Of a stretch of DNA of 64,000 bases, positions 12,466-22,219 are shown piece by piece. This DNA is from a virus. Positions within the stretch are counted from its first letter, which is position 1, and every line of letters starts with the position of its first letter. The stretch is from the IMG/VR virus record IMGVR_UViG_3300032093_000017; one strand, 5' to 3'. The notes under the pieces are model-generated. The model made no database searches. It was not told the origin of the DNA and saw only the letters and a list, made by a program, of their open reading frames with translations. A program made the position numbers and the translations under genes.

Positions 12466-13137
12466 ATGACATTAGATCTTCATAACTTTTTCAAGTATTA
12501 TGATGATGGTAATGCGAATCATGTATCAGCAGTTCAATGGTTAGAGGATAACCTTCCTGCTCAATTTATGGATGACTCAGAATCTGAATGGATTGGAATT
12601 TTTAGAACAAAACCACCAACTCCAGCAGTTCTTGATGTTCCATACTTTAACCAAGTAGACAACTATAGAGATGCACAAAGAACTTGCAACTCTTCATCGT
12701 GTGCAATGTGTCTTGCTTTCCTCAAACCAGGAAGCATTAAAGGTGATGATGAGTATGTTAAGAAAGTATTTGCGATTGGTGATACTACAGACCATGCAGT
12801 TCAAACTAAAGTTCTACAAGGTTATGGTATTAAATCACACTTTAGTTATAATTTAAGTTTTGTTGATATTGATAAGAGTCTTGATAGAGGAAAACCTGTT
12901 GTTATTGGTATTCTTCACCGTGGTTCTCTAACTTCTCCTACTGGTGGGCACATGTGCGTGGTCATTGGTAAGACTCCAGATGGTAAGGGATATTATATTA
13001 ATGATCCTTATGGTTCTCTCAATGACAATTATACTGGTCCCGTAACGAATGGTAAGAAAACCATTTATACCAAAGCAGTTCTTAAGCACCGTTGGGCACC
13101 TACCGGAGGGGACGGATGGGGTCGTATCTTTGATTGA
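12466..13137 (+). CDS. Peptidase C39-like protein with an N-terminal domain shared with the lysozyme
   Basis: VPYFNQ, CNSSSCAM, GHMCVVIG and INDPYG motifs. Confidence 0.8.
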   Translation: MTLDLHNFFKYYDDGNANHVSAVQWLEDNLPAQFMDDSESEWIGIFRTKPPTPAVLDVPYFNQVDNYRDAQRTCNSSSCAMCLAFLKPGSIKGDDEYVKKVFAIGDTTDHAVQTKVLQGYGIKSHFSYNLSFVDIDKSLDRGKPVVIGILHRGSLTSPTGGHMCVVIGKTPDGKGYYINDPYGSLNDNYTGPVTNGKKTIYTKAVLKHRWAPTGGDGWGRIFD

Positions 13138-13144
13138 TAAATAA

Positions 13145-13204
13145 TAATGCCTTAATTGGTTCGCATCTTTAAGGTAGAGGGGGAGCAGAAATGCTCCTTT
13201 TCTT
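13145..13204 (+). ncRNA. Putative small late RNA (two hairpins) antisense to the endonuclease leader
   Basis: TAAATA at 13138; hairpin GCCTTAA-loop-TTAAGGT; GAAA-tetraloop terminator; loop complementary to 13218-13227. Confidence 0.45.
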
Positions 13205-13240
13205 GTATAAATACTATTGCGAACCAATTTAAGAGTAGAA

Positions 13241-13876
13241 ATGATAAATCCTAACAGGTTTTATACCTATGCCTATTTGCGTGAGGATAGAACTCCTTAT
13301 TACATAGGTAAGGGAGTAAGATATAGATTATTTGAAGGTAGTGGAAAACCTTGTCCTGTTCCAAAAGATAAAAATAGAATAATCTTTCTCAAACAAAATC
13401 TTATAGAAGAGGAAGCATTTAAACACGAAACTTATATGATAAGTGTGTTCGGCAGAAAGATTGATGGTGGAATTCTTTTGAATAAAACTTTTGGTGGTGA
13501 AGGTGCTTCTGGTAGAGTAGTCAAAGATTCCACCAGAGTAATTCTTAAAGAGAAATGTAGTGGGTGGAAACACACACCAGAAGCAATAGAAAAAATAAGA
13601 CAAAGTTCTTTGAGTAGGATATATTCCCCAAAAAGTGAGGAAACAAAAAGAAAAATAAGTAATACTCTAAAAGGAAGAAAATTATCAAAAGAGTTGGTAG
13701 ATAAAAGAACTCAATCTGTCTGTAAAAATACTTATGTCATAATATCACCAGATGGGGTTAAATATAATACCAATAATTTAAAAGAATTCCAAAGACAAAA
13801 TAATTTAAAACATCTTTATGATGTGGTTTCTGGTAAAAGGAAACAAGAGAAAGGTTGGACTGCTTTTAAAATATAA
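13241..13876 (+). mobile_element. Free-standing homing endonuclease, GIY-YIG-like with NUMOD3 repeats
   Basis: FYTYAY...YYIGKG, E, LLNKTFGGEG; HTPEAIEKI and SEETKRKIS repeats; TATAAATA at 13206. Confidence 0.8.
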
Positions 13877-13898
13877 ATAACTAAAAAGGATTCGCAAG

Positions 13899-14342
13899 AT
13901 GGACGCACAAGATTTTCGTAGTCTTCAAGAAGCATATTTGGAAGTCGTTAGTAATAATAATGAGTTGAGTGAAATGTCTTATAAAAAACTTCCTGTCGGC
14001 AAAATGATGAGAAAAGTTGAATATAGGGCAGAAAGAGAAGCAGATACGAGAGCAGATGCAGAAACAGCAGACACAACTGCTTTTATGAGTCATAATCGGG
14101 CATTAAGAGCGCACAAACGCGCAGAAAGAAATAAAGAAAGAAGCAATAGAATGATAAATGTTGCTGATACTCATAGTAAGAAAGCAGCAAAGGCAAAATC
14201 AAAACTTAAAAAAGAACAAGTAGACATCTACGACATCATCCTCTCACACTTACTTGATGAAGGATATGCTGAAACTCCAGAAGCAGCAGAAGCAATTATG
14301 GTGAATATGAGTGAAGATTGGAGAGAGAGTATTATTGGTTAA
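13899..14342 (+). CDS. Late protein with conserved ends and a variable core, copy 1
   Basis: Termini nearly identical to 21650-22120; TATAAATA at 13872. Confidence 0.8.
   Translation: MDAQDFRSLQEAYLEVVSNNNELSEMSYKKLPVGKMMRKVEYRAEREADTRADAETADTTAFMSHNRALRAHKRAERNKERSNRMINVADTHSKKAAKAKSKLKKEQVDIYDIILSHLLDEGYAETPEAAEAIMVNMSEDWRESIIG
14223..14342 (+). repeat. 120-nt dispersed repeat, copy A
   Basis: 112/120 nt identical to 22001-22120 by manual comparison. Confidence 0.9.
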
Positions 14343-14348
14343 ATACTT

Positions 14349-14495
14349 ATGGAGAATGAAAACTCCTCGATTAATTTCAAGAGAAAGATCTTACAAAGAA
14401 TTAAAGATCTTACAAATCACGGAAAGCACTTAGAAGCTTCCAAACTTTTCAACAAATACTTTGGAGACGACAATGGCAAGAATCGATTTACATAA
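14349..14495 (+). CDS. Hypothetical protein (48 aa)
   Basis: MENENSSINF...; follows TAAATA; overlaps the lysozyme start. Confidence 0.4.
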   Translation: MENENSSINFKRKILQRIKDLTNHGKHLEASKLFNKYFGDDNGKNRFT

Positions 14496-15144
14496 CTTCT
14501 TCAAGTTCTATGACGAGAAGAACCCTAATCATGTGAAAGCAGTTCAATGGTTAGAAGATAACCTACCAGTCAAGTATCTGGAAGATAACGTAGATTGGGC
14601 GGAGATCTACAGAGGAAAAAAGGGTAATGCGGCACCAGCATCAGCACCATCTGCTGCCGCTCCTGTAGTTGGTGGTGACGATATGCCTATGATGGGTCTT
14701 AAATTAATCAAAGAGTTTGAAGGATGCCATCTGAAAGCATATCCAGATCCTCTCACTGGTGGACTTCCAATCACAATTGGTTGGGGTTCAACCCGCAAGA
14801 AGGATGGATCTGCATTCCATATGGGTGATACTCTCACACAAACAGAAGCAGATGAACTTTTGATTGAACAATGCAAGAGAGAATTTCTTCCTGCACTTCG
14901 CAAAATTCCACACTGGAATGAAATGTCTGATGGTAAAAAAGGTGCCCTACTTTCTTTTGCTTATAATCTCGGTGCTGGTTTTTATGGTTCTGGTGATTTT
15001 AATACTATCACTAAGAGACTGAAGAATAAAGAATGGGACTTAGTTCCCGATGCTTTATATCTCTACAGAAATCCTGGTTCAAATGTAGAAGCAGGTCTTG
15101 CTCGTAGAAGAAAAGCAGAAGGTGAATCTTGGAAAAAAGGTTAA
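14473..15144 (+). CDS. GH24 lysozyme (endolysin-like)
   Basis: IKEFEG..LKAYPD...TIGWG, SFAYNLG and GLARRRKAE motifs. Confidence 0.9.
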   Translation: MARIDLHNFFKFYDEKNPNHVKAVQWLEDNLPVKYLEDNVDWAEIYRGKKGNAAPASAPSAAAPVVGGDDMPMMGLKLIKEFEGCHLKAYPDPLTGGLPITIGWGSTRKKDGSAFHMGDTLTQTEADELLIEQCKREFLPALRKIPHWNEMSDGKKGALLSFAYNLGAGFYGSGDFNTITKRLKNKEWDLVPDALYLYRNPGSNVEAGLARRRKAEGESWKKG

Positions 15145-15162
15145 CCCTATTCACAAAGGAAA

Positions 15163-15519
15163 ATGACTACTAAGAAAAACGAAAATGCTATGGGACAACT
15201 AATTCGTATATGTATCTTGGGTTGGTCTGCTGCTCTTCTCACTGCAAGTTATGCGGGTACTCTATCTAAGATGGACCCAACTTTTATTGCTACAGTCTTC
15301 ACTGCATCTGCTGCTACTTTTGGTATTAATACAATGAAGAAAGGTGGAGATGATGAAGATGAAAAAAAGCAAGAACCTAAAAGAGAGGAGTTTGTAGAAA
15401 CTCCACCAGAACCACCTGCTCCTGAAGCACCACCAGAAACTCTTGAAGCAAGAGTGGAAGCACTGGAAACTAAAGTAGAAGATGGTGAAGGATTCGTTCA
15501 ACCACGCACAGGAGCATAA
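15163..15519 (+). CDS. Membrane protein (holin candidate)
   Basis: Two hydrophobic segments and a charged tail, directly after the lysozyme. Confidence 0.45.
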   Translation: MTTKKNENAMGQLIRICILGWSAALLTASYAGTLSKMDPTFIATVFTASAATFGINTMKKGGDDEDEKKQEPKREEFVETPPEPPAPEAPPETLEARVEALETKVEDGEGFVQPRTGA

Positions 15520-15632
15520 TGGCAAAATCAGCAAACAAAGGTAAGAAGGGTTCTTCTGGAGGAAAACAATCCAAGCAGAACCAGGGCAATGCTACAGCAA
15601 AGAAAGCAAAAAACGGTGGTAAGAAAAAATAA
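15519..15632 (+). CDS. Lys/Gly-rich 37-aa peptide
   Basis: MAKSANKGKKGSSGGKQ...KKK; GGAG RBS; TAATG coupling. Confidence 0.55.
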   Translation: MAKSANKGKKGSSGGKQSKQNQGNATAKKAKNGGKKK

Positions 15633-15732
15633 TGTTACTAGAAATTTTAATTGCTGGTAATATTATAATTGGACCCAATTTATGTAAAGTTGATTTTATA
15701 CACAATGGACATTTATATACGGTTGAATACAA

Positions 15733-15933
15733 ATGCCAAGAGAATGGAACACTCCTAAGAGAGAATCGTGGAATTCCCCCATCCACAACATATTGAAAGC
15801 AATAGATAACCACACCCGTCTCCATATGGAGACGGGTGATTTTTGGCACGAAGAACAAGCACAAATTCTAAGAAAGTATGTTAAAGATTTAAAAATTTGG
15901 ATTCACAAGCAAGAAGGTGTTTGGGATGAATGA
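15733..15933 (+). CDS. Hypothetical protein
   Basis: ORF MPREWNTP...; within the operon. Confidence 0.55.
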   Translation: MPREWNTPKRESWNSPIHNILKAIDNHTRLHMETGDFWHEEQAQILRKYVKDLKIWIHKQEGVWDE

Positions 15934-16031
15934 ATTTCCTTGGGGTGTAATTATAATTCTTTGTTCTGGTTTGATATTTACTGCCTATGTAATTTACTAC
16001 ATATTAAAGTTAGCATATTTGGAGATGAAAG

Positions 16032-16244
16032 ATGAAACATCTGAGTCTGATCCTATCAATCACAAGTCTCACCATTAGTGGTGCTCTTTGTGTAGGTGCT
16101 TATATTACTTACCAAAAAGCACAAAAGATTTTGGATAATCCAGAAGAATTTGTTGGTGCTGTTGTGGAGAAGCAAGTCACTAAAGCATTTGATAAACTTC
16201 CTATTCCTAAGATAAATACTGAGAAGTTTAAATTACCATTCTAA
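16032..16244 (+). CDS. Membrane-anchored hypothetical protein
   Basis: N-terminal hydrophobic helix. Confidence 0.55.
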   Translation: MKHLSLILSITSLTISGALCVGAYITYQKAQKILDNPEEFVGAVVEKQVTKAFDKLPIPKINTEKFKLPF

Positions 16245-16654
16245 TGGATAAAGACCCATATATCTACAGAGTAAAACAGGTATTAAGAGTAGTTGATGGT
16301 GACACAATCGATGCGGACATTGATCTTGGGTTCGATATTTCTCTTACTAAGCGAGTACGCCTTAGTGGTGTTGATACTCCGGAAAGTCGTACAACCGATC
16401 TCAAAGAAAAAGCACTTGGATTAGAAGTCAAAGAATGGTTGAAAAAAAATCTTGATGGTAAAAAAAATATTCTCATTAAAACGGAACTTCCAGACTCAAC
16501 TGAAAAGTATGGGAGAATTCTTGGAAGGTTATATGTTGATGATGTATGTCTTAATGATCGTATGATTGCTGAAGGATATGCTTGGGAATACTCAGGAGGA
16601 ACCAAAGTGAAGGATTTTGCTTTACTAGAATCAAAAAGAAAGTCGAGCTGCTAA
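16244..16654 (+). CDS. Thermonuclease (SNase family)
   Basis: VVDGDT, RLSGVDTPE and KYGRILG motifs. Confidence 0.85.
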   Translation: MDKDPYIYRVKQVLRVVDGDTIDADIDLGFDISLTKRVRLSGVDTPESRTTDLKEKALGLEVKEWLKKNLDGKKNILIKTELPDSTEKYGRILGRLYVDDVCLNDRMIAEGYAWEYSGGTKVKDFALLESKRKSSC

Positions 16655-17461
16655 TTTTTTAGCAATCTTTTTAGCGGGGGCAAAGAGAGGTTTAAATCTT
16701 TCTTTGCCTTCTTTTGTAAATTTATCTTTTATTACATCATCAATAATTATTTTATTATCAATCTCATAGAGAGCATTAATTTCAACTTGATCCCGAATGT
16801 ATTGTTCTATATTAGTTACTTGTTCTACTAGACGAGTTCCTTCTGCAGAATATTCAAAGATATCAATATGACCTTCTTCTGCTAGAACATAATGTAGGAC
16901 AGGTTTAACTTGTTTGATTTTAATTTTAAATTTGTTCTTGGTTGCTTCTTTGATGATTGGTTCTGCAGCATTCTTTAAAGCATTCAAAACTGTTGTAGAT
17001 GCTATTGTCGCAGCAGTGGTTACTACTGCGACAGCACCAGCCGTAGCAACAAGAGAAGGGTCAGGTAAATTAATATCGACTCCATAAACACTAAAAGTGG
17101 GTTGAGGTTTAGTATCTGCTGGTATTTCAGCAATCGGCACTTGGGAAGGAGGAGTTTGAGTAATCTGATTCAGTTGAAGAGGTGGGGTAGTATCTGGAAG
17201 ACCTCTTGGTTTTTCTTCCTTTAGATCTTCTTGTTTCTTTTGTTCTGCTCTCACTGCATAATCAAACTCTTCTTGTGTTGGGACATCAATTACTGGATAA
17301 TTGATAGTCGTATCTGGCATATTAATAATTGGCATATCAACACTTGGTATCACAGATCGTTCTGCTTTCCTAATTACGGGAGGTTCTATTGTTGGAATAA
17401 TTGATGGAGCATCAATCCTAGAAGAATTAATTTTTATTGGTTTTATTTCCATTTGCCACAT
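16631..17461 (-). CDS. Hypothetical Pro-rich membrane protein
   Basis: ORF in the minus-strand operon; one hydrophobic segment. Confidence 0.6.
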   Translation of the reverse strand: MWQMEIKPIKINSSRIDAPSIIPTIEPPVIRKAERSVIPSVDMPIINMPDTTINYPVIDVPTQEEFDYAVRAEQKKQEDLKEEKPRGLPDTTPPLQLNQITQTPPSQVPIAEIPADTKPQPTFSVYGVDINLPDPSLVATAGAVAVVTTAATIASTTVLNALKNAAEPIIKEATKNKFKIKIKQVKPVLHYVLAEEGHIDIFEYSAEGTRLVEQVTNIEQYIRDQVEINALYEIDNKIIIDDVIKDKFTKEGKERFKPLFAPAKKIAKKLAARLSF

Positions 17462-18011
17462 CCTGTATTCTTGGATACTTCACTACTATATCAGCACATA
17501 TTTTTGCATAAGGACTATCTGGATGAAATGAAATTCCATTCTTCACTGCCTCACCACACTTTAAAAGTCTCACAAGTTCAAAATCGAGTCTTGCTTTATC
17601 TGCTTCTGCTTGCTGTCTTGTAATTTCTACACGAGCTCGTGCCTTACAAAGTTCTTGTAATGAACCATCAAGAGGAAAATTAAAACCCAAACTCACTCCA
17701 AAGTTTCCACTATGAGATTGGTATGATGTTGGATCTTGACTTCCATTAAAACTTCCCAAAGAAAATGGGGCAATACTCATTGTAGGACCTTGACAAGAAA
17801 CTCCATTGCCAAATGTATTCAAGGCATAAGGACCTTGAAGCACCTGAACTGCCTGGTTAGTTACATTACCAGTTGCAGATGCTGAAGGTCCCGCAATATT
17901 TGTATTGCTTGGTGCCTGTTGTGCAAAAGCAGAAGTTCCGATTAATATTATTGCGTAAAGACTGATATAGTATTTGCTATAGAATCTTCCGTAGTTTTTC
18001 TGTCTATCCAT
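17427..18011 (-). CDS. Secreted hypothetical protein
   Basis: Signal-peptide-like segment ending AFA; several Cys. Confidence 0.6.
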   Translation of the reverse strand: MDRQKNYGRFYSKYYISLYAIILIGTSAFAQQAPSNTNIAGPSASATGNVTNQAVQVLQGPYALNTFGNGVSCQGPTMSIAPFSLGSFNGSQDPTSYQSHSGNFGVSLGFNFPLDGSLQELCKARARVEITRQQAEADKARLDFELVRLLKCGEAVKNGISFHPDSPYAKICADIVVKYPRIQDVANGNKTNKN

Positions 18012-18310
18012 GTTTCCTTTGCCACTCCAGGAGTCAGATAAGTCTCACTAAATTGGAATGGAGCACCTTGAGTTTGAATTGTGTAATTCATACCAGGAGT
18101 AGGAGTTCCTGGTATATTAATATTGGTGCCAGTGACTGTGTAAGATGTCCCAGTTGTATATTCTATTTGTTTGATGACCTCAACCACTTCAGTGCGTGTT
18201 TTTGTTTCTGAGGTGATTGTCCCACTAGTGAAGTTGGGAGTTACTGGTCCAGCGTATGAGGGACACATAACTCCCAGAACTGCAACCAGTCCGAGAGTTA
18301 TGTGTCTCAT
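17948..18310 (-). CDS. Secreted hypothetical protein
   Basis: Signal peptide; Thr-rich. Confidence 0.6.
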   Translation of the reverse strand: MRHITLGLVAVLGVMCPSYAGPVTPNFTSGTITSETKTRTEVVEVIKQIEYTTGTSYTVTGTNINIPGTPTPGMNYTIQTQGAPFQFSETYLTPGVAKETWIDRKTTEDSIANTISVFTQ

Positions 18311-18768
18311 TTAAATACACTTAATTCGACGGATCTTTGTGCTGTTCCAGTGCTTCCAGGACCACCGGCAGTGATAGTAGCAACACCAGTAGGAGTTAAA
18401 GTGCCTGCAAGAGATCCTTTATCTCCACCTAACTGAGTAGTAGAGTTGCTATAAAGGTTGGGAGAAGCAATTGTTCCAGAAGCTGCCGACTGAGTGGTGA
18501 CAACAGTATCTGCAGTAATTGATGTTTCTGAAAAAGTAAATGCTTGACCTGCCGTATTGACTTCATAAGAACTGGCAGTTCCAATACCGCCGAATGTATT
18601 TGCTTTAATATTTGTACCCGATACTGCATATGAGGCTCCAATTCTTTCTGATTGGACCACTGCCCCTTGAACGTTTAATTGTACCGAATCAGTGATTTTA
18701 GATGTGATTTCAGCAGCACTTGTAGGAATGGCAAAGAATAACGAAAAGGCTAATAGAAGTCTTTTCAT
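18307..18768 (-). CDS. Secreted hypothetical protein
   Basis: MKRLLLAFSLFFAIPTSAA signal peptide; minus-strand TAAATA upstream. Confidence 0.65.
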   Translation of the reverse strand: MKRLLLAFSLFFAIPTSAAEITSKITDSVQLNVQGAVVQSERIGASYAVSGTNIKANTFGGIGTASSYEVNTAGQAFTFSETSITADTVVTTQSAASGTIASPNLYSNSTTQLGGDKGSLAGTLTPTGVATITAGGPGSTGTAQRSVELSVFK

Positions 18769-18864
18769 TTTTCTATTTTATAGGACTAAAAGTATTTATC
18801 GTCACCATTTTTCATATTTAACTACTTGTGGTATGATATAAATAAGTCGAATTTATTAAATTTT

Positions 18865-19089
18865 ATGACCGAACAACAGGAACATCTTGCAAATCTCGTA
18901 AAGCAAGCACAAGACCTATCTCTTGAATTGGAAGGATTGCAAACTAAGGCTACAGCAAAAAGAGAACTTTTTCTGAAGGTTCAAGGTGCGATTGAGTATC
19001 TTACCCAAATTGGTGTAACTCTTCCAGAACCAGAACCAGAAGAAATTCCACTTCCAGAAACAGAAGAACCTGAAACGGAAGAAGAATGA
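18865..19089 (+). CDS. Hypothetical coiled-coil protein with an acidic tail
   Basis: ATG at 18865 after TATAAATA. Confidence 0.6.
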   Translation: MTEQQEHLANLVKQAQDLSLELEGLQTKATAKRELFLKVQGAIEYLTQIGVTLPEPEPEEIPLPETEEPETEEE

Positions 19090-19095
19090 GGTTTA

Positions 19096-19118
19096 GTCCC
19101 CGAAAGGGGACTTTTTTA
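19096..19118 (+). terminator. Intrinsic terminator
   Basis: AGTCCCC-GAAA-GGGGACT followed by a T tract. Confidence 0.85.
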
Positions 19119-19122
19119 TGAC

Positions 19123-19156
19123 TTGACACCAGAACCAGACCGTAGTATGATAAATA
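19123..19156 (+). promoter_or_regulatory. psbA tandem sigma70 and late promoter
   Basis: TTGACA-17 nt-TATGAT overlapping TAAATA. Confidence 0.8.
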
Positions 19157-19209
19157 GGTAAACAAATGTTAAGGATTCCTCATAATTCTTAACATTGTCA
19201 AACACCCGT

Positions 19210-19305
19210 TAACCGAGACCTATGGGTGTATAAGAACGTCTCTCATACCCACAATGGAGGGTGTTGTGGGATATACTGTAACCATCCAGTTCCCCCTGGA
19301 CTTTT
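19210..19305 (+). ncRNA. Structured psbA 5' leader, probably the PhotoRC-II motif
   Basis: Stems GAGAC/GTCTC, CCCACAAT/GTTGTGGG and TCCAG/CTGGA upstream of cyanophage psbA. Confidence 0.6.
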
Positions 19306-19324
19306 ACTTACCCTTTTAAAACAA

Positions 19325-20884
19325 ATGACTGCTTCAATCGCTTCACGCCGTTCTGGCGAAAATACCTGGGAACAATTTTGTAACTGGGTGACTTCAACCG
19401 ATAACCGTCTTTATGTCGGGTGGTTTGGTGTTTTGATGATTCCAACGCTGCTTACTGCTGCTACTTGTTTCATTATCGCATTCATTGGTGCTCCTCCTGT
19501 GGACATTGATGGTATTCGTGAACCCGTTGCTGGTTCTCTAATGTACGGAAACAACATCATCTCTGGTGCCGTTGTTCCTTCGTCCAATGCAATTGGACTG
19601 CACTTTTATCCCATCTGGGAAGCTGCTTCCCTAGATGAGTGGCTTTACAACGGTGGACCTTTCCAACTTGTTGTCTTCCACTTCCTCATCGGCATCTATT
19701 GCTATATGGGTCGTGAATGGGAACTCTCTTACCGTCTAGGTATGCGTCCTTGGATTATGGTTGCTTACAGTGCTCCTGTTGCTGCTGCGAGTGCAGTTTT
19801 CCTGGTCTATCCTTTCGGTCAAGGTTCTTTCTCTGATGCAATGCCTCTGGGTATTTCTGGTACGTTCAACTATATGCTTGTGTTCCAGGCAGAGCACAAC
19901 ATCCTGATGCACCCCTTCCATATGCTTGGAGTTGCTGGTGTGTTCGGTGGTTCTCTGTTCAGTGCAATGCACGGTTCTCTGGTTACTTCCTCGCTGGTTC
20001 GTGAAACCACTGAGAATGAGTCTCAGAACTACGGTTATAAGTTCGGCCAAGAAGAAGAGACTTATAACATCGTTGCTGCTCACGGTTATTTCGGTCGTCT
20101 TATTTTCCAATATGCGTCCTTTAATAACTCCCGTTCACTGCACTTCTTCCTTGCTGCCTGGCCCGTTGTAGGCATCTGGTTCACTGCTCTTGGTGTGAGC
20201 ACTATGGCTTTTAACCTCAATCGTCGGGGTCCCGTCCTAGCAATTTGACGGTAAACATCGGGTGAACTGCTGGAAGCCCTCCACAAATGGGTAATCAGCA
20301 TCCAAGTCCAAAGTACACTTTGGAAAGGTTCAGAGACTACCTGAGGAGTTCAGTCTCCTTAATAACAGGAATAAGTGCCCGACATCCTAAACGGATGAAG
20401 ATATAGTCCACTCCTTAAAGATGGTAAATTTAAGGGTTCAGTGTAACGGTTTCAACTTTAACCAATCTATCGTAGATAGTCAGGGTAAAGTTATTAATAC
20501 TTGGGCAGATGTGCTCAATCGTGCAGGACTCGGAATGGAGGTAATGCACGAACGGAACGCTAGATTTGTTGGTGTTCTTGCTTAGGAATAAGCATTAGTA
20601 AAATCGGGTTAAACGGGGAAACTCTCTATGAGACAATCCCGTACCAAGTCAGAAAGGGTTTAAGTTTTCTGAAAGGTCTAACGACTAGGTGGTGAGTCCC
20701 AACAATAATCCACCCACGAATGCCCGACATCCAGAACGGATGAAGAGATAGTCTGAACTTACTAGTGATAGTAAGAAGTAGAGGATAAAGAACCACTACG
20801 ATAACAAAATTGCACAACTTCCCACTTGACCTTGCTGCCGCAGAAGCAACTCCTGTTGCTCTTACTGCACCTGCAATCGGTTGA
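19325..20884 (+). CDS. psbA: Photosystem II D1; exons 19325-20217, 20444-20561, 20813-20884
   Basis: The spliced exons total 1083 nt (360 aa) and restore AFNL^NGFNFNQS and HERNA^HNFPLDLA. Confidence 0.97.
20218..20443 (+). mobile_element. Group I intron 1 in psbA (226 nt, no ORF)
   Basis: Exon ends in U and intron ends in G; IGS GGGGU pairs with ACCU^C; R GTTCAGAGACTA and S AAGATATAGTCC elements. Confidence 0.9.
20562..20812 (+). mobile_element. Group I intron 2 in psbA (251 nt, no ORF)
   Basis: IGS GGUGUU pairs with AACGCU; R GTCTAACGACTA and S AAGAGATAGTCT elements; terminal G. Confidence 0.9.
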
Positions 20885-20891
20885 TAAAATT

Positions 20892-20918
20892 GGAGACCCT
20901 TTACGGGTCTCTTTTTTT
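20892..20918 (+). terminator. psbA terminator
   Basis: GAGACCC-TTTAC-GGGTCTC followed by T7. Confidence 0.85.
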
Positions 20919-20971
20919 GTGCTATAATGGAGTTTAAGATTTTATAAATAGTTAAAAGATTAAACACCATA

Positions 20972-21493
20972 ATGAGAACCACGAAGATTTGTAGAACCTG
21001 CACACAAGAACTTCCTATCTCTGATTTTAGAGAAGGTCGTAGAAGGTGTTTAAGATGTGAGGAAAAAACTTATGCTGAAAACTGGGCAAGTAAAACTCAC
21101 ATTACTTGCAACAAGTGTGGTGTAGAAAAATTGATTTCTGAATATTACAAAGGGCACAAAAGGTGCAAGGAATGTTATAGTAAAGACTATAAGGATAAGA
21201 AACCTTCCTTTGATGATAAGAAGGACTATATGTTGAAATATACTTATGGAGAAGATTTTGGACTAGACGAATATAAAAAACTCCTTCAGGAACAAAATGA
21301 AGTTTGTGCTATTTGCTTTAATCCAAATACCAATGGTAGAAAAGATAGTAATAGTCTTTATGTGGACCACGACCATAATACTGGTAAAGTTCGTGGATTG
21401 CTTTGTAGCAACTGTAATAGAATGCTTGGTCTAGTTGGTGATAATTTAAATACATTAAGTAGTGCAGTTAAATATCTACAAAAGCACCAATAA
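20972..21493 (+). mobile_element. Free-standing Endonuclease VII-family homing endonuclease (F-CphI-like)
   Basis: CAIC...VDHDH.TGKVRGLLCSNCN; N-terminal CxxC repeats; directly downstream of psbA; TATAAATA at 20943. Confidence 0.85.
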
Positions 21494-21494
21494 T

Positions 21495-21614
21495 ATGAGT
21501 CATAATACCCAAAACGAACCTATACCTAACTGGATAATCTGGGCAGGCATAGGACTTATGATATTCACAATACTTTGCTTTGTCTTACTAACTGTTGGGA
21601 TGATTTATGAATGA
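21495..21614 (+). CDS. 39-aa single-TM peptide
   Basis: MSHNTQNEPIPNWIIWAGIGLMIF... Confidence 0.45.
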   Translation: MSHNTQNEPIPNWIIWAGIGLMIFTILCFVLLTVGMIYE

Positions 21615-21649
21615 GCAAAAGAATAAATAACTAAAAAGTATCTCATAAG

Positions 21650-22120
21650 ATGGACTCACAAGAACTTCGCAATCTTCAAGAAGCATATATGGAAGTTGTT
21701 GAAAATCAGAAACTTGATGAAGAAATAACTCCCGAAAGAAGAACACAATATAAAAGAGGTCTTAAAGTTAGACAAACAAACCAAGAAACTGGTTTTGGTA
21801 AAGGAAGACCAAGAAAAAGAGCAACCTCACCACAACCAGGAGCACAACATTATAGAAAAGGAATGACGCAATCTCATCGTGATACTATGAGAGATGCTGC
21901 GAGAGAAGAAAATCCCGAAAGACCAGAAGGTAGTGGTTCTCTTCCAAAGGGTAAAAAGTTAGAAAGACAAAAGAAAACAGGTGTAAGTGCTGAAAGTTTT
22001 GATATTTACGACATCATCCTCTCACATCTTCTTGATGAAGGATATGCTGAAACACCAGAAGCAGCAGAAGCAATTATGGTGAATATGAGTGAAGATTGGA
22101 GACAGAGTATTATTGGTTGA
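21650..22120 (+). CDS. Late protein with conserved ends and a variable core, copy 2
   Basis: Termini match 13899-14342; shares the upstream ATAAATAACTAAAAAG. Confidence 0.8.
   Translation: MDSQELRNLQEAYMEVVENQKLDEEITPERRTQYKRGLKVRQTNQETGFGKGRPRKRATSPQPGAQHYRKGMTQSHRDTMRDAAREENPERPEGSGSLPKGKKLERQKKTGVSAESFDIYDIILSHLLDEGYAETPEAAEAIMVNMSEDWRQSIIG
22001..22120 (+). repeat. 120-nt dispersed repeat, copy B
   Basis: Matches 14223-14342, including a 48-nt perfect run. Confidence 0.9.
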
Positions 22121-22142
22121 GTATAATGTGATATAATACGTA

Positions 22143-22168
22143 GGAGACCTGTGAAGGTCTCTTTTTTT
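22143..22168 (+). terminator. Intrinsic terminator
   Basis: GAGACCT-GTGA-AGGTCTC followed by T7. Confidence 0.85.
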
Positions 22169-22185
22169 ATGAGCAATAATACTCA

Positions 22186-22219
22186 TTGACCTCTTTTGTA
22201 AAGTATTGTAAACTAAATA
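22186..22219 (+). promoter_or_regulatory. psbD promoter with HLR1 site and late promoter
   Basis: TTGACC-17 nt-TAAACT; HLR1 at 22195-22212; TAAATA at 22214. Confidence 0.75.

Follow-up and report, generated by a model that had tools for sequence, protein, structure and literature searches.

We describe two late-type genes, here called copy A and copy B, whose ends are nearly identical and whose basic central parts (cores) differ. They lie in the IMG/VR virus record IMGVR_UViG_3300032093_000017, and the whole stretch analysed, 64,000 nucleotides (nt), is referred to as the window. The window is part of a T4-like cyanomyovirus and carries psbA, psbD, and baseplate and tail-fibre genes; its psbA is the sole part that matches the phage isolate collection, at about 82%. 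A megablast summary listed 12 Pseudomonas phage records with at least 99% identity to some part of 13200-22200. The elements of the two copies are as follows.

13872..13888, + strand: late-promoter-like TATAAATA and conserved leader ACTAAAAAG of copy A, with a 16-mer that is exact in copy B
13899-14342, + strand: open reading frame (ORF) of copy A, 147 amino acids (aa)
13899..13973, + strand: acidic N-leader of copy A, residues 1-25, with L-Q-E at 9-11 and L-S-E at 23-25
13974..14222, + strand: basic core of copy A, residues 26-108, net +12, of the YKKLPVGKMM...ADTHSKK...KLKKEQ type
14223..14339, + strand: acidic 39-aa C-module of copy A, predicted three-helix, terminal form ending S-I-I-G-stop
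21622..21638, + strand: late-promoter-like AATAAATA and conserved leader of copy B, with the 16-mer exact in copy A
21650-22120, + strand: ORF of copy B, 156 aa
21650..21721, + strand: acidic N-leader of copy B, residues 1-24, with L-Q-E at 9-11 and L-D-E at 22-24
21722..22000, + strand: basic core of copy B, residues 25-117, net +12; the same module occurs in contig L005
22001..22117, + strand: acidic 39-aa C-module of copy B, terminal form
22142..22170, + strand: intrinsic terminator after copy B, a 9-bp GC-rich hairpin and a T-run

The near-identity of the ends, reported in an initial annotation of this DNA, was reproduced. The 16-mer ATAAATAACTAAAAAG has two exact copies in the 64 kb, each 10-11 nt 5' of an ATG, and four matches when up to two mismatches are allowed, compared with 0.25 expected. 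The N-termini, MDAQDFRSLQEAYLEVV in copy A and MDSQELRNLQEAYMEVV in copy B, are similar to each other. The C-modules are identical at 38 of 39 aa, and the last 120 nt are identical at 112 positions, with eight differences and one perfect run of 48 nt. Compared alone, the two cores showed no significant similarity (BLASTP E value 0.35). Each contains 23 Lys and Arg residues, and the net charge is +12 in both cores, -5 in the N-leaders and -8 or -9 in the C-modules. As had been stated, each core starts after LSE or LDE and has LKKE or VSAE behind it. A tblastn search of the window found these two copies and no third. The terminator after copy B has a predicted RNA folding energy of -17.4 kcal/mol (z -3.5), which was equalled by none of 200 shuffled sequences.

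A large family of predicted late genes in cyanomyoviruses

Relatives of copy A comprise 2918 proteins of near length (80-258 aa) and 770 longer ones, essentially none of them with a Pfam domain; fusion to a known domain was looked for among the 770 longer relatives and none was seen. Searching 1.84 billion representatives with the C-module profile alone recovered 4018 clusters (at 50% identity), and 193 stretches of IMG/VR encode relatives. Whole phage records carry 4-7 C-modules each, at dispersed loci, and not just two copies. A promoter of the TATAAATA type and the 5' untranslated region TATAAATAACTAAAAAGTATTTGTAAA are found upstream of most family genes in other phage contigs.

Copies A and B had no significant match in sequence searches of Pfam, NCBIfam and the PDB, and in PHROG they matched families of unknown function only, the C-terminal part matching phrog_3708 with E values of 1e-8 (copy A) and 1.4e-7 (copy B). 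Homology to the T4 internal proteins (IPs) IPI, IPII and IPIII was not found in the Pfam, NCBIfam, PDB and PHROG searches, and a motif-based literature search turned up no published description of the family. Divergent members are present in the isolates S-CRM01, S-SRM01, DSL-LC02, DSL-LC03, B3, B23 and S-SCSM2R, a small set of freshwater and estuarine cyanomyoviruses and a single marine one. In the marine isolate S-SCSM2R, ORF205 (L084:2501-4093) has a C-module at the extreme N-terminus of a 530-aa protein rich in Lys and Glu, and a SegE-type endonuclease gene lies two genes downstream. Taken together, the searches identify copies A and B as members of a very large, phage-only and cyanomyovirus-specific family of predicted late genes that has no Pfam name.

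Modular architecture of the predicted proteins

As read from the alignments, a family protein consists of an acidic N-leader, one or more basic cores and one or more acidic 39-aa modules predicted to form three helices. The N-leader is about 11-25 aa long and has the consensus M-D/N-x-Q-x-x-R-x-L-Q-E-A-Y...L-D-E. The C-module is either terminal or internal and then followed by another basic segment, and it is repeated two to three times in some proteins, which reach 540 aa. All 127 terminal C-modules end in S-I-(I/L/V)-Gly-stop, and 198 of 240 internal ones end in [LIVM]-x-E, with this motif nearby in 31 more.

Among 560 core segments, 98% are net positive, and the cores are mostly disordered. 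Individual core types are kept across phages at 60-95%. The initial annotation had called the cores of copies A and B unrelated; this holds for A against B, both rich in Lys and Arg, but each core is a conserved module in other phages. The core A module is found before and after the C-module in other proteins, and the core B tail PKGKKLERQKKTGVSAE also occurs in a 333-aa protein of phage DSL-LC02. Identical core modules sit behind an N-leader (...L-D-E) or behind an internal C-module (...S-I-V-E-E-x-L-D-E); examples of modules used in both positions are AEGSYG, ELTGER, DSPYEKASD, ISDR, GEKPLP and GYKxLPxxKM. Since the cores are mosaics, single-linkage clustering gave one giant cluster and no count of core types could be obtained.

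Modelled alone by AlphaFold2 (AF2), the C-module formed three helices with a predicted local distance difference test (pLDDT) score of 88, while the full-length model had low confidence (pLDDT 67). Pfam LisH matched one distant member only (E 0.021). In a profile search of the PDB the best match of the C-module was a weak one to an RNA polymerase beta-prime dock (E 0.02), Foldseek returned nothing at E below 1, and VIA-align gave a top Z of 5.2 for ANTAR and 3.6-3.8 for UBA/CUE, values at the noise level of generic three-helix folds. For 14202-14339, the best profile and Foldseek matches, all weak, share a beta-prime helical segment (C. difficile 370-392, VMDKLVKEGYAHNIKSAKSIVEK), which is probably a generic motif. 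Two further candidates were dropped: the N-leader as a truncated last helix of the C-module (hhalign probability 0.1), and a likeness of the C-module to the gp22 scaffold through an SDEW motif, for which hmmsearch gave no match.

Exchange of cores between conserved ends

The related phage contigs fetched for comparison carry L numbers, and P0164 and P0207 denote family proteins. Contigs L043 and L049-L055 share 94-98% DNA identity with the window across the pepC39, GIY-YIG endonuclease and lysozyme genes that surround copy A. At the copy-A locus itself their genes encode 175 and 123 aa and contain different cores. L043 is 97.6% identical to the window up to 13949, has no homology to it over 13950-14207, and is 97.4% identical again from 14208. 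In L049 the break is at 13937 and identity returns at 14229, and L049-L055 as a group repeat the L043 pattern. On both sides the breakpoints lie within the conserved ends, at 13937-13949 (5') and at 14208-14229 (3'). For copy B, the core at 21708-21993 is 94.8% identical in nucleotides to L005:1286-1571, where the module lies behind a C-module and forms the end of the protein; the module is bounded by LDE at its left edge and by SAE at its right. Because near-identical flanks enclose different cores, and because core B recurs in another architecture, these alignments establish the cores as discrete modules that are swapped between paralogues and phages by homologous recombination in the constant ends. 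The exchange of cores suspected in the initial annotation is thereby borne out.

The ends are also conserved as DNA. At identical residues, the fraction of identical codons between the window and other phages was 0.79-0.98 in the ends; for the same phage pairs it was 0.52-0.71 in pepC39, lysozyme, psbA and psbD, with about 0.53 expected from codon usage. The ends thus stay nearly identical, silent sites included, in phages whose remaining genes are saturated at such sites. RNA structure was considered as a cause of the synonymous conservation and rejected, the fold z of the ends being -0.6 to +0.5. Distant members (S-CRM01, S-SRM01, DSL-LC02 and others) keep 13-23 of 35 residues at a same-codon fraction of 0.55, and since residues are kept while codons are randomised, the C-module is under selection as protein too. 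Within the main clade, homogenisation of the end DNA is best explained by frequent gene conversion or recombination.

Homing endonucleases and the insertion of copy A

Each copy lies directly 3' of a free-standing homing endonuclease gene, as had been noted from the sequence.

13217..13876, + strand: free-standing homing endonuclease gene with a GIY-YIG-like N-terminal motif and NUMOD3
20972..21493, + strand: free-standing homing endonuclease gene of the Endonuclease VII type, located between psbA and copy B

The first matched Pfam NUMOD3 (E 3e-4) and PHROG 314, 'homing endonuclease' (E 1e-9), and the late promoter of copy A contains its stop codon. L043 and L049-L055 carry the gene at 99.5% identity, and its homologues adjoin family genes at many loci. 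The gene is probably expressed late, because it has a TATAAATA motif of its own just 5', at 13206-13213. The second gene matched Pfam Endonuclease_7 (E 5e-22), and the order psbA, endonuclease, family gene, psbD is kept in L048, L054 and L081-L083. The neighbouring psbA (19190-20850) contains two group I introns (Rfam RF00028 at 20208-20435 and 20552-20775), with a short middle exon at about 20436-20551, a last exon near 20812 and a PhotoRC-II motif at 19190-19284.

The 61 dereplicated loci examined hold 80 family genes, of which 16 have a GIY-YIG or Endonuclease VII-type gene no more than 400 bp away. Under random placement in the same loci the number was 2.5 ± 1.4 (maximum 8 in 2000 trials), so that the observed number is about six times chance. 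HNH-type endonuclease neighbours occur too, and 64 of the 80 family genes have no adjacent endonuclease. In seven loci (L014, L057, L016, L042, L048, L071 and L072) pepC39 and lysozyme are contiguous; because of this, the endonuclease together with copy A is an insertion in the lineage of the window. The two genes flanking this insertion, 12466-13137 (Peptidase_C39-like) and 14461-15144 (phage lysozyme), have a private module of about 45 aa in common at the N-termini of their products, DLHNFFK(Y/F)YD..NHV.AVQWLEDNLP. The homing endonucleases may supply double-strand breaks at the conserved ends and so drive gene conversion, and the ends would then act as homing targets and repair templates, leading to their spread and homogenisation.

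Basic ORFs with a T4-type leader share core modules with the family

T4 IPII and IPIII start with MKTYQEFIAEA. In the loci around family genes, 18 distinct basic ORFs start with MKT[FY]xEF[IL]xE, for example MKTYQEFISEA. Their net charge is +7 to +58, with one exception of -4, and they have no C-module. These ORFs and the family have core modules in common at 54-64% identity (E 3e-22 to 4e-67). One is shared between L079:3262-4584 and the segment of P0164 between its two C-modules (64% over 166 aa, E 4e-67). Another links L078:4661-5965 with L043:5706-6233 (54% over 82 aa), the gene at the copy-A locus of this 97%-identical phage, whose core stands there in place of core A. Arrays of such ORFs were seen at L078:4661-5965, L079:3262-4584, L077:3666-5966, L036:1165-2612, L006:2837-3223, L043:224-1888 and other places; several of the ORFs have late promoters, and none is inside the window. 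No mention of cyanophage ORFs with this leader turned up in the literature.

In these ORFs, the module nearest the leader is 68-84% identical to part of T4-GC119, and the N-terminus of T4-GC119 matches the tail of the family protein P0207. Purified S-SM1 virions yielded 13 peptide counts of T4-GC119, whose gene ranges in size between 276 and 2985 nt among cyanomyoviruses (PMC3037559, Suppl. Table 8). Members compared here are L090:1694-2857 (Syn19_101), L091:82-1569 (SSM1_115) and L089:1274-2863 (S-E7). T4-GC119 contains internal copies of AKKCWxGYxKKGxQKLFGKTYNRCVK, the module that follows the T4-like leader.

Possible loading into the prohead

On balance we lean towards the interpretation that the N-leader directs these proteins into the prohead and that a gp21-type prohead protease then cleaves them, leaving units of core and acidic module. 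The N-leader would load the proteins as the capsid targeting sequence (CTS) does for the T4 internal proteins. The protease would then cut after [LIV]-x-E junctions (L-Q-E, L-D-E and I-x-E), the leader would be removed, and units of a basic core and an acidic module would be left with the packaged DNA. Such units may be injected with the DNA, in which case the library of cores would serve as a diversifying cargo.

Several features are consistent with this interpretation. The T4 prohead protease gp21 cuts after (L/I)-x-E. Of 282 leaders, 278 have [LIV]xE directly before A-Y, and 251 have a further L-(D/S/N)-E near residue 20-25. At the level of sequence, copies A and B and most relatives have both a late-type promoter and a basic body. 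In the C-modules the Glu is present only where something follows, as internal I-x-E against terminal Gly-stop, which fits a role as protease junction. Moreover, SFLTE of T4 gp23 has its counterpart in SFLYE in the gp23 of a related complete phage, which keeps L-x-E at the site of T4 gp23 cleavage; the position of SFLTE corresponds to the 65-residue gap between the 521-aa precursor of T4 and the 456-aa mature chain in the PDB. Also in favour are the T4-type leaders on core modules that the family uses too, and the modules that connect the family with the virion-detected T4-GC119.

Other observations weigh against it. No proteomic record was found of a family member in a virion, cleaved or injected: the virion proteome of S-SCSM2R lists one unnamed protein of unknown function only, and the members in S-CRM01, S-SRM01 and S-SCSM2R are labelled merely 'hypothetical' in GenBank. 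The family leader MDAQELRNLQEAY has only the (I/L)-x-E-A ending in common with MKTYQEFIAEA of T4, and no start of the T4 CTS type was present among the C-module proteins sampled. The pattern [LIVMF]xE is common in acidic helices and is not enriched inside the cores, where 551 instances were counted and 583 ± 22 in shuffled sequences. The link to T4-GC119 is made by modules of other proteins and does not involve core A or core B, and these two cores had no match among the ORFs with the T4-type leader (E 0.02 or worse).

A bolder version of the interpretation strikes us as rather unlikely. It holds that the family is a self-homogenising cassette system by which cyanomyoviruses keep reshuffling a common library of thousands of basic cargo peptides into polyprotein-like precursors, which are cut in the prohead and injected with the DNA. 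The junction modules would then be loading and protease signals, recombination handles and endonuclease targets at once, and the injected peptides would possibly be counter-defence or host-takeover factors.

Alternative explanations

The family could instead consist of late cytoplasmic proteins that never enter the virion, for example a multivalent 'sticker and spacer' scaffold or a DNA- or RNA-binding protein. The acidic modules would self-associate or bind a partner, the basic disordered spacers would bind nucleic acid, and [LIV]xE would be an ordinary helix feature. We regard this as doubtful, if worth serious attention. The C-module, confidently predicted as a small helical domain and repeated along long proteins, suits such a role, as do its best, non-significant fold matches, which are nucleic-acid- or protein-binding three-helix units (ANTAR, beta-prime dock, UBA/CUE). 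The lack of enrichment of LxE in the cores, and the fact that no member in an isolate is annotated as structural, point the same way. However, the fold matches are at noise level, with Z of 5.2 or lower, and the explanation does not account for the difference between internal modules with I-x-E and terminal modules with Gly-stop, nor for the same cores behind a T4-type leader and the modules shared with the virion protein T4-GC119.

The model of the initial annotation, that both ends are docking propeptides and that a basic peptide is set free by prohead protease cuts flanking the core, after LSE or LDE and after LKKE or VSAE, we consider improbable. Its N-side L-x-E is conserved, in 293 of 353 cases a Glu is kept five residues ahead of the Y-D of the C-module, and the module edges used in recombination fall at LDE (left) and SAE (right). 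However, L, I, V, M or F stands at P3 of this C-side Glu in only 66 of the 353, so that the protease site proposed between core and C-module was not upheld, and since the [LIVMF]xE context is absent in most cases, release of a free core is unlikely. The clean junction motif, I-x-E, comes after the C-module and not before it. The C-module is, moreover, often internal, repeated two to three times or followed by long tails, and hence is not an 'end' that could dock; it probably stays on its core.

Least probable of all, and in our view very unlikely, is a selfish or neutral landing pad, with the ends as recognition sites and repair templates of homing endonucleases, the genes as passengers and the cores as unconstrained filler of little function as protein: the enriched adjacency of endonucleases, the joint insertion of endonuclease and copy A between pepC39 and lysozyme and the conserved synonymous sites of the ends agree with it, but the frames are open in thousands of members, distant C-modules are kept as protein with codons randomised, the cores are net positive and their types maintained across phages, and most family genes lack an adjacent endonuclease.

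Comparison with known systems

Internal head proteins are the least understood virion components of T4-like phages, and IPI* of T4 is an injected counter-defence factor. To our knowledge, no internal head protein has been defined in cyanophages. Like T4 IPI-III, the family comprises predicted late, multicopy genes with a short conserved N-leader ending in (I/L)-x-E-A and a basic body, and like the T4 IPs it is extremely variable between close relatives. Among the diverse T4 IPs, the leader is the sole conserved feature (PMC3012670), and the IP loci of T-even phages are polymorphic (Mullaney and Black 1996; Repoila et al. 1994, reviewed in PMC3012670, PMC9026906). Unlike the T4 IPs, the family has a leader of different sequence and an extra, often repeated acidic three-helix module in polyprotein-like chains. 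Its junctions are conserved in DNA, act as recombination handles and are linked to homing endonucleases. T4-GC119 resembles the family in being rich in Lys and Arg and modular, with modules in common with P0207 (Sullivan et al. 2010, PMC3037559). Unlike the family, it lacks the N-leader and C-module, and it occurs in marine isolates that do not have the family.

Shuffling around short conserved flanks has a parallel in the PeSL cassettes of T4-type phages, which Arbiol et al. 2010 are said to have described as non-coding early-promoter stem-loops; their short conserved flanks, a promoter and a terminator, reportedly mediate modular gene shuffling. Both systems thus have short conserved shuffling flanks, those of the family being a late promoter and coding modules. 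Free-standing homing endonucleases of T4-like phages include Seg and Mob of T4 and F-CphI by the psbA intron of S-PM2, and GIY-YIG and Endonuclease VII-type genes of these phages are intergenic, lie near conserved targets and co-convert flanking DNA. Compared with Seg, Mob and F-CphI, the target proposed for the family is a dispersed multicopy gene end and not a single essential gene.

Implications for cyanomyovirus biology

In this family, gene ends are more conserved in nucleotides than psbA, while the cores between them are swapped between genomes that are 97% identical. The family thereby offers a clear example from nature of how a lytic phage exchanges cassettes, apparently in connection with homing endonucleases. 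If the proteins are loaded as proposed, the rules of leader and junction could be used to load cyanophage heads with foreign proteins, much as the CTS is used in T4. The rather unlikely reading as a library of injected cargo peptides would, if true, describe a combinatorial, population-wide generator of diversity for injected phage proteins. With thousands of clusters and several copies per genome, the family is large enough to represent a major unrecognised part of cyanomyovirus biology.

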